A DNA stretch of 64,000 bases from Planctomycetota bacterium. GTDB taxonomy: Bacteria > Planctomycetota > UBA1135 > UBA2386. The stretch is taken from positions 5,472,001 through 5,536,000 of the forward strand of contig OZ245838.1 of NCBI GenBank assembly GCA_965228735.1, read 5' to 3'. Both the position numbers and the translations under genes were made by a program. The notes below the pieces were generated by a model that ran no database searches, was not told the DNA's origin, and saw nothing but the letters and a program-made list of their open reading frames with translations. Positions 24,968 to 26,164 of the stretch are shown piece after piece (position 1 is the stretch's first letter; each line of letters starts with the position of its first letter).

Positions 24968-26164
24968 ATGAAGCGACCTGTCCTGCTCGCCGTGCTCGCA
25001 AGCGCCAGTCTGGCCATCGCGCAGCGCGCCCCACTGCCCGGCCTCCCGGTCGTGCCACCGCCCGTTTCCCACCCCGCCCTGATCGCGCAGCCGTTGATCG
25101 ACAGCGGCGGCAGCCAGATGTCGGCGCCCGCCGCCCCGAAGGCTCCCAAGGCCAAGGGCAACGGCAAGAAGGCCCCGCAGAAGAAGGGCCGCAGCAAGCC
25201 CCTGATCGACCCCGACACCGTCGGCGTCAAGATCAAGGGCCGCGCGCTCAAGGCCGCGGTCAAGAAGGTCGCGAAGCTGCCGTGGCACAGCAGCAAGGAG
25301 TTCGAGGACATGCGCGCGGAGTCGGCCGCGACCGGCAAGCCGATCCTGTTCCTGCAGGCGCTCGGCGACATCGACGGCTTTGCTTGAAGCGCGCTGCAGA
25401 GCCTGCGGGGCGTGACCCTGCCGAACAAGAAGGTGATGCAGATGCTCGAGAACGAGTTCGTTCTCGGCGCCGCCAACATCGAACGGGCCGAGTTCGTCGG
25501 CACTTCGCACGGCTACAAGACGACCGACTGCGCCGTCGGCACGACCAACGGCGCTGGTGGTCGTAACGTGCAGCTGTGCGTGCTCGCCGCGGACAGCACC
25601 GTGCTGCACGTGCTGCCGGGCTTCTGGCACGCCGAGGACCTGATCGACGAGCTCGAGTTCAGCAAGGAGCTCAACGCGCTCTACCTCGACCCCGACCGTT
25701 CGCGCGCCGAGAAGCAGCGCCTGTTCCAGGCGATGCACCGGAGCAAGATCCGTCGCATCTCGGCCGAGACGCGCGCCCGCAGCCGGTGGCAGGGCTTCGA
25801 CGTCTGGGCCGAGGTCGCCCGCGCGCAGCGTGAGGGCGGCAGCGATACCGTGCGCCTCGACGAGGAGGGCAAGCCCGTGCGCACGGCCGGCGGTCAGATC
25901 GCGATCCGGCCGGTGTGCGAGCTCGTGCACCACCGCATGGCGCAGCGGCCGTTCCTCGCGTTCGACGACTTCGACATCGAGGAGTTCGTCGACTACGGCC
26001 GGCCCTACTACGACAACAACGCCCGGCACGACGACGGCAAGACGTTCCGTGCCGCCGAGCGCAACCAGAAGAAGCGCATGCGCGCGGAGCAGAAGCAGCG
26101 TGAGCTGGAGCTTCGCGAGCAGAAGCGCCAGGCGCGCGGCGGCAAGGCCGCGCGTCGCTGGTAG
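24968..26164 (+). CDS. Putative secreted thioredoxin-like selenoprotein (in-frame UGA at 25385-25387, residue 140 of 398)
   Basis: ORFs 24968..25387 and 25412..26164 are in the same frame, separated only by TGA: GKPILFLQALGDIDGFA-U-SALQSLRGVTLPNKKVMQMLENEFVL. Confidence 0.75.
25405..25421 (+). promoter_or_regulatory. Candidate bacterial SECIS stem-loop
   Basis: GCGGGG-CGUGA-CCCUGC; loop starts 24 nt after the UGA with G at loop position 2. Confidence 0.45.

Follow-up and report, generated by a model that had tools for sequence, protein, structure and literature searches.

Are the two neighbouring open reading frames (ORFs) at positions 24968–25387 (139 aa) and 25412–26164 (250 aa) of the analysed window, a stretch of 64,000 nucleotides from a genome of the phylum Planctomycetota, two genes or a single selenoprotein gene? 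Both share a common frame with one TGA between them. This TGA (25385–25387, plus strand) is codon 140 of a 398-codon frame, which contains no other in-frame TGA. Read-through yields a protein of 398 aa with selenocysteine at position 140 (U140), as the first-pass annotation had proposed for the two joined ORFs. The whole gene (24968–26164, plus strand) ends in TAG. An AGGAG located 5 nt upstream of the ATG (24958–24962, plus strand) resembles a Shine-Dalgarno element, a role assigned from its sequence. A scan for promoters and terminators found none. The halves of 139 and 250 aa are deposited as separate database proteins, which is the splitting by gene callers that the annotation had anticipated. 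Very likely, these two 'hypothetical' proteins are halves of one frame in which a conserved UGA is read as Sec.

The TGA is unchanged in the contigs of all four sequencing runs examined, which stem from four studies and of which two may be the source of the window. Neither TGG nor TGC was found at the site, as a sequencing error would require. One of the runs (X8) represents another strain and differs from the window at six coding positions; each of these differences is synonymous and lies downstream of the TGA.

Conservation of the codon was examined in loci L056–L164, which gave 103 distinct mapped rows (99 core rows with TGA, one core row with TGC and three more distant rows with TGA); seven loci without a row of their own are duplicates and carry TGA in each case. 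The aligned codon is therefore TGA in 99 of the 100 distinct core-family rows, and TGC, encoding a Cys paralog, in the remaining one. Both flanks of the site are conserved. This is the pattern of TGA or Cys at residue 140 that the annotation had suggested looking for. Among 61 related genomes, 29 match the protein (two of them with distant hits), and all 27 close loci, including that of the window, have TGA at the aligned codon. Matches to the family profile were obtained in 79 of 301 genomes of the phylum. Of 289 candidate stretches from a GTDB-wide scan, 254 were confirmed; the scan yielded 79 loci, assigned by their titles to Planctomycetota, Obscuribacterales/Melainabacteria, one Bryobacterales, one Proteobacteria and a few unnamed bacteria. 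Judged from its codons, the family is multi-phylum and almost purely Sec-using.

The protein library contains 1666 representatives with E values up to 0.001, of which 80 reach 1e-30 or better. Among the best 150 of the 1666, 81 start directly past the Sec site and 44 are fragments of other kinds, leaving 25 that span the site. The spanning representatives have Cys (18), Ala (3), Trp (2), Pro (1) or Ser (1) at this position, with most of the 18 Cys forms belonging to more distant subfamilies. A natural Sec/Cys pair was observed at locus L030, where an intact ORF with TGC at the site (L030:1474–2634, minus strand; 46% identical to the query) lies directly downstream of the Sec copy; it has lost the hairpin described below and some of its C-terminal cap residues are altered. 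A tblastn search of the protein against its own genome revealed no close paralog. Fused or long forms (500–2000 aa) were sought and none was found, which is weak evidence. In two representatives, P0012 and P0017, part of the strand-helix-cap region is apparently repeated (four matched stretches), and the L161 member (P0030) has a helical C-terminal extension without a Pfam match.

A SECIS-type hairpin, GCGGGG-CGUGA-CCCUGC, is located at 25405–25421 (plus strand), as claimed in the annotation. It comprises a 6-bp stem and a 5-nt loop CGUGA (25411–25415) and has a calculated energy of −8.9 kcal/mol. The loop starts 23–24 nt after the UGA, with 23 nt separating the two. The bacterial SECIS model given in section 5 of PMC13188914 describes a loop of 3–9 nt with G in one of its first two positions, a stem of 4–16 bp, a spacing of 16–37 nt and a minimum free energy of at most −7.5. 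Checked by hand, the hairpin agrees with the model in loop length (5), stem length (6), loop start (CG), spacing (23) and energy (−8.9 kcal/mol). The first 46 nt fold as a different hairpin (z = −0.63), and windows of 61 and 81 nt gave z values of −2.7 and −3.1. A 6-bp hairpin within 16–37 nt downstream was found for 27% of 1204 ordinary TGA stops of the genome. Taken alone, the hairpin of the window gene could be due to chance, whereas chance does not account for its conservation.

In all 99 Sec-type genes, a stem of 5 bp or more occurs at a spacing of 23–24 nt; the corresponding frequencies are 7.1% for true stops and 7.0% for Cys codons (n = 9248). RNAalifold applied to 27 sequences returned this stem only, with changes on both sides at two pairs (C-G to A-U in six sequences, G-C to C-G in three). 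Stem cells are paired in 96.9% of cases, a value reached by 0 of 500 shuffles and compared to 56–72% in slid controls. Since the sequences are related, these covariation and hairpin counts are not independent trials. More distant members have GAGAGC/GCUCUC as stem in an unchanged register. The Arg codon within the stem is CGG, AGA, AGG or CGA in 99/99 Sec genes and never CGC, which accounts for 57% of Arg codons in the genome and is used at that place in the Cys paralog of L030. The CGUGA loop is shared by two unrelated selenoprotein candidates of the same genome, again downstream of the UGA. With its fixed spacing of 23–24 nt and covarying stems over several phyla, this hairpin set offers a clean basis for testing SelB recognition beyond the customary models.

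These results bear on the reading that UGA is a true stop, separating two independent genes or marking a pseudogene. TGA is the main stop of the genome (1204 of 1834 long ORFs), the halves are separate in databases and the 81 representatives mentioned above start just past the site, all of which would fit such a stop. The stop would, however, cut one predicted domain in two, and the same codon recurs across several phyla together with the covarying hairpin. The halves were also not seen as independent genes, which the annotation had named as an argument against its own proposal: Cys homologues are single ORFs, and homology runs full length across the TGA. Together with the exclusively synonymous strain differences downstream, this makes a true stop highly improbable.

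The source genome encodes the machinery for Sec incorporation. All four components that the annotation had asked for are present, with selA, selB and selD scoring above cut-off and selC represented by a tRNA-Sec(UCA). The selD gene itself contains a TGA. Among the relatives, 60 of 61 possess selA, and both selA and tRNA-Sec were found in all five distant carriers tested. These are the genomes behind L161, L148, L153, L149 and L156, four from Obscuribacterales/Melainabacteria and one from Bryobacterales, in which selA is above cut-off and tRNA-Sec is present. Among the titles listed in a literature search, none dealt with Sec in Melainabacteria.

Decoding of the UGA as Trp, or a sequencing error, is even less probable than a true stop. 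Trp occupies the site in two of the 25 spanning representatives, P0013 and P0017. The 90% cluster of P0013, however, also includes members of 237 aa that begin nine residues past this Trp, from which we infer that gene callers probably treated one TGA in two ways. TGG occurs in none of the 100 DNA rows and Cys forms exist, so that a non-Cys replacement, another counter-argument put forward in the annotation, was not what these rows displayed. TGA being the main stop, a tRNA complement with one tRNA-Trp(CCA) and one tRNA-Sec(UCA), and the agreement of the four runs likewise oppose this explanation, which is largely refuted. Frame, codon and hairpin conservation, Cys forms and machinery are direct observations. 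Based on the TGA in 99 of 100 rows, the covarying hairpin, the presence of selA, selB, selC and selD and the agreeing contigs, UGA140 is almost certainly decoded as Sec.

About 20 more genes of the same genome with an in-frame TGA and a redox-like motif, many of them thioredoxin-like, were picked by eye from 40 rows as selenoprotein candidates. Their TGA codons are located on contig C1 at 2546238(+), 4855623(−), 6929513(+), 7087946(−), 3235945(+), 848558(+), 6546711(+), 3714212(−), 3976156(−), 583577(+), 3694905(−), 4985410(−), 4375233(+), 4263499(−), 3485980(−), 3014005(−), 4643014(−), 4838102(+), 1424409(−), 5601049(+) and 6694255(−). According to our reading of the motifs, on which the family labels depend, the candidates include a C-U protein of the CANSR family (see below), three GHPLG-x-T-U-NNG proteins, four TlpA-like U-x-P-C proteins, two HMA-like U-x-x-C proteins, two AhpD-like C-x-x-U proteins, a glutaredoxin and a VPGU protein. 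The source genome thus looks selenoprotein-rich as far as such candidates indicate.

The signal peptide, fold and Sec site of the protein are predictions. Residues 1–18 (24968–25021, plus strand) form a predicted cleavable signal peptide with a basic start, a hydrophobic core and AIA followed by Q19; this Gln column is nearly invariant in alignment A1. With a home-made heuristic, signal-peptide-like N-termini were detected in 87 of 100 homologs compared to 82 of 600 control windows, in line with the export predicted in the annotation. The protein is therefore likely to be exported, as far as its N-terminus allows such a prediction. A Pro/Lys-rich linker follows (residues 19–82; 25022–25213, plus strand), which is of low conservation and variable in length in A1. 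The thioredoxin-like domain of the Thioredoxin_7/DsbD-C/AGR type spans residues 102–240 approximately (25271–25687, plus strand) and is supported by an AlphaFold2 model, a structural match to 3f9u and weak similarity to PF13899. It includes a conserved insertion loop (25499–25567, plus strand; G178, S180, TTNGAG), which was identified by conservation, has low pLDDT and ends in an invariant Asn200 at the cis-Pro position. Downstream are a conserved, family-specific helical cap with a beta-hairpin and no clear fold match (25688–26020, plus strand) and a basic, charged tail that is variable in A1 (26021–26161, plus strand).

The AlphaFold2 model of residues 83–367, built with 28 sequences, has a pLDDT of 84.6 and a pTM of 0.85, with residues 178–196 of the conserved loop below 50. 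Foldseek searches with the model gave no match at E 0.001, and the ranking was thioredoxin-like throughout. The best structural match in VIA-align was 3f9u (Z 11.0, rmsd 2.4, 110 aligned residues), followed by 2lst, 3ira, 4fyb, AGR3 and DsbD-C with Z values of 8.3–9.0. U140 occupies the N-terminal end of the active-site helix in the model and, in alignments, matches the first Cys of CxxC and CxxS proteins; its assignment as Sec is based on conservation, the Cys forms and this place in the fold. The thioredoxin-like fold with the stop at the redox Cys/Sec position, as put forward in the annotation, is thus borne out by the prediction. Folded alone with 82 sequences, the cap reached a pLDDT of 92.7. 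No Foldseek match at E 0.001 was obtained for it, and the best structural hit (Z 6.6, 57 residues) covers a helix pair only; a missing match of this kind does not show a new fold. The cap residues Q275, F277, D278, H321, R323, D342, G344 and Y348 are 92–100% conserved.

Around the site, the window protein reads F-A-U-S-A, which the annotation had described as an AU motif without an adjacent Cys. The second half of this description stands: 98 of 100 rows have G, L or A at position +3 after U (M and N also occur), no resolving Cys is conserved, and apart from the Sec site no Cys column exceeds 37% in the 100 rows. The first half does not, since the residue before U varies (A in 40, T in 31 and L in 24 of 100 rows; Cys in one), and the motif is better given as U-S-A-[G/L/A]. 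Asn200 is present in 100/100 rows; in the alignment it corresponds to the Pro that precedes strand 3 in CxxC Trx7 proteins and in SELENON. In four full-length paralogs, P0018, P0019, P0023 and P0044, the Sec site is occupied by Pro, Ser or Ala, and much of the scaffold is kept; judged by these replacements, they are likely redox-dead forms. N200 and Q275 are lost in all four of them, and G178 and S180 in three. From these four cases we infer that all four residues are tied to the selenol site. Loop and cap would lie close to Sec.

Comparison with known families does not assign the protein to any of them. Pfam and NCBIfam models yielded no family for the window protein at E values up to 1, and only weak hits for its homologs. 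Thioredoxin_7 (PF13899), DsbD-C, DsbH, DUF255 (PF03190) and AGR2-AGR3-ERp19 resemble it in fold and topology (Z 8–11), with weak sequence matches (AGR3 E 0.025, best PF13899 E 1.4e-4). The window family differs by Sec in place of Cys, the lack of CxxC/CxxS, the replaced cis-Pro, the extra cap domain and a loop before the active residue that is five residues longer. For PF13899, with a Pfam cut-off of 27 bits, the window protein gave no hit, the listed scores of its homologs were 13–20 bits and 13 of 28 members of the window family gave weak hits. Classic dithiol thioredoxins and DsbD-C have CxxC and a cis-Pro before strand 3, both of which are absent here. With one selenol, no cis-Pro and an extra cap, the active site departs from that of classic thioredoxins. 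Proteins of the VPGUxxT (NF041382/NF041383) and Trx7/PDZ (NF041199) families share in-ORF SECIS decoding and a Trx7-type N-terminus, but have another motif and architecture; their models matched the family weakly (E 0.011–0.06 in one or two of 28 members), far below the cut-offs.

The closest profile tested is that of an unnamed bacterial 'C-A-N-S-R' (CANSR) family (alignment A4; Pirellulaceae, cyanobacteria and others), with an hhalign probability of 99.5% and scores of 131–167. It shares the Asn at the cis-Pro site and has Sec members as well (L028 and C1:2546238 of the source genome). It differs in being mostly Cys-using and in its insertion and C-terminal region, and is itself uncharacterised. 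SELENON was not among the best 120 matches listed in a homolog search with A4. The families of Haft and Tolstoy (2025) were compared through Table 1 of PMC13188914; none of the 119 families in that table is recognisable by name or motif as the window's family. The family is likewise not mentioned in the consulted parts of PMC13326102, PMC12839072, PMC2757866, PMC3473315 and PMC12013277. Literature searches yielded no prior description, and BSepDB (PMC13326102, Table S2) and the deep-Sep supplements could list more families. The family is well supported as a real selenoprotein family, one of a generally known kind that has apparently not been catalogued. It adds to the catalogues checked a family split by gene callers, with members in Obscuribacterales that possess Sec machinery.

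The annotation had called the protein SelN-like, which holds in part. Comparison was based on 31 loci from a metagenome motif scan, to which named SELENON hits were added for later profile comparisons. Several of the 31 loci encode full-length proteins with selenoprotein N as best named relatives; the Sec-flanking motif is invariant in their alignment (A6) because the loci were picked by that motif. In hhalign, the family matched SELENON with 96.2%, and with 98.1% and a score of 85–87 when deeper sets (100 and 42 sequences) were used. Control scores were 53 (CANSR family), 53 (DUF255) and 46 (Trx7) for SELENON, and 72 (Trx7), 52 (DUF255) and 131 (CANSR) for the window's family. The best match of SELENON among the families tested is thus the window's family, whereas that of the window's family is another bacterial family. 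In a tree of 74 rows (22 of the 100 family rows, 13 SELENON plus L193) the family groups with SELENON with a support of 99/97, and in a second tree of 46 rows (12 family, 8 SELENON, without L193) with 95/90; given about 148 columns and a SELENON stem of 2.4–3.3 changes per site, a long-branch error is possible in both.

At the family level, the profile match covers the whole thioredoxin-like domain, indicating a homologous Sec-bearing domain. The register after Sec is the same (U-x-x-G-x-x-L-R, with Arg at +7 and no resolving Cys at +3), and both proteins are extracytoplasmic, in the ER lumen for SELENON (PMC12839072) and by prediction in the envelope for the window protein. Alone, the window protein scored about 9–10 bits on the SELENON profile and ranked below another candidate selenoprotein of the genome, with 21.7, and a DUF255 domain, with 9.8. 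The window's family lacks the EF-hand, the upstream domain and the SCUG motif of SELENON, is one residue shorter before U without the Cys, carries Asn where SELENON has Pro ahead of strand 3, and possesses its own conserved loop and C-terminal cap. No EF-hand hit was obtained in the family (SelN controls gave weak hits), and the upstream (central) domain of SELENON matched it with an hhalign probability of only 0.2–0.4%, compared to E 4e-20 for the control L193. The exact SELENON-motif pattern occurred in 0 of 401 genomes of the phylum, and the SELENON profile had no match among PDB sequences.

L193:1170–2396 (minus strand) is an intronless gene for a SELENON-like protein of 409 aa with a lipoprotein-like N-terminus and the SELENON upstream domain. 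Its in-ORF hairpin GAGAGCA-GGUC-UGCUCUC follows the UGA at the same place as that of the window gene. L193 likely represents a true bacterial SELENON ortholog. Reportedly, there is thesis work on a SELENON ortholog from Poribacteria.

By contrast, these comparisons suggest that the window's family is likely a distant relative of SELENON by its thioredoxin domain, not an ortholog. The further step, that the Sec domain of SELENON branches with or from within the window's family as its nearest non-orthologous bacterial stock, with the family having a distinct one-selenol chemistry based on Asn at the cis-Pro position and on a cap without a fold match, is tentative and rather unlikely to hold in full. 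If true, a small soluble member would be a workable model of the SELENON active site, and the origin of an animal ER selenoprotein would lie in envelope proteins of Planctomycetota and Melainabacteria. The kinship could provide a simpler protein for the study of the SELENON thioredoxin domain; loss of SELENON causes congenital myopathies (PMC12839072).

Regarding function, we favour with moderate confidence a predicted exported thioredoxin-fold protein that acts as a one-selenol envelope oxidoreductase, its conserved UGA being decoded as Sec via the hairpin. After export, the selenolate of Sec140 would attack an oxidised sulfur (disulfide or sulfenic acid) of a specific envelope substrate, with the TTNGAG loop, Asn200 and the C-terminal cap holding the substrate in place. 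As a resolving Cys is missing, release of the mixed Se-S intermediate would depend on an external thiol or on one of the UxxC/CxxC thioredoxin-like proteins of the genome, whose other thioredoxin-like selenoprotein candidates could act as the source of reductant. The cis-Pro of classic thioredoxins binds peptide substrates (PMC2757866), and an Asn in its place fits small-molecule chemistry or metal binding equally well.

A small-molecule reductase, reducing peroxide or removing halogen in the manner of GPx, peroxiredoxins or deiodinases with loop and cap as a closed pocket, is a distinctly less probable function. The single-Sec motif without a resolving Cys, the polar residue at the cis-Pro site (compare the Arg of peroxiredoxins, PMC2757866), the conserved insertion after strand 2 and the many invariant polar residues would suit it. 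The best structural matches, however, are DsbD-C, DsbH and AGR-type domains, and no peroxiredoxin, GPx or deiodinase is among the best 50 matches listed, leaving room for an unlisted family. The Ser/Thr at +3 that is typical of GPx and monothiol glutaredoxins (PMC2757866) is also absent. Still less likely, the selenolate would serve in the envelope to bind or sense a soft metal or a metalloid and would catalyse no exchange. The absence of cis-Pro, which has been proposed to keep metals from binding at the active sites of thioredoxins (PMC2757866, citing Su et al. 2007), and the availability of conserved His, Asp and Glu speak for it; against it are the lack of a conserved second Cys/Sec ligand, the absence of recurrent metal-transport or resistance genes nearby and the kinship with SELENON and AGR/DsbD-type redox domains.

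The gene is flanked by a divergent enoyl-CoA hydratase gene (24078–24818, minus strand) and a convergent gene for a YfhO-like membrane protein (26246–29062, minus strand); a DUF4262 protein is encoded at 21515–22000 (plus strand). All three neighbours are common to close kin only. In the window and 79 loci with flanks of up to 4 kb, crotonase-like genes occurred at 18 loci, DUF4262-like genes at 13 and YfhO-like genes at 10, reflecting synteny among close kin. Among 20 distant loci, no neighbour was common to three or more and no recurrent operon was found. As neighbours are not conserved beyond close kin, they provide no clue to the substrate. Elsewhere in the window, the ORF at 15405–15821 (minus strand) has two CDGSH-like Cys/His clusters, which we take to resemble those of a MiNT-type Fe-S protein.
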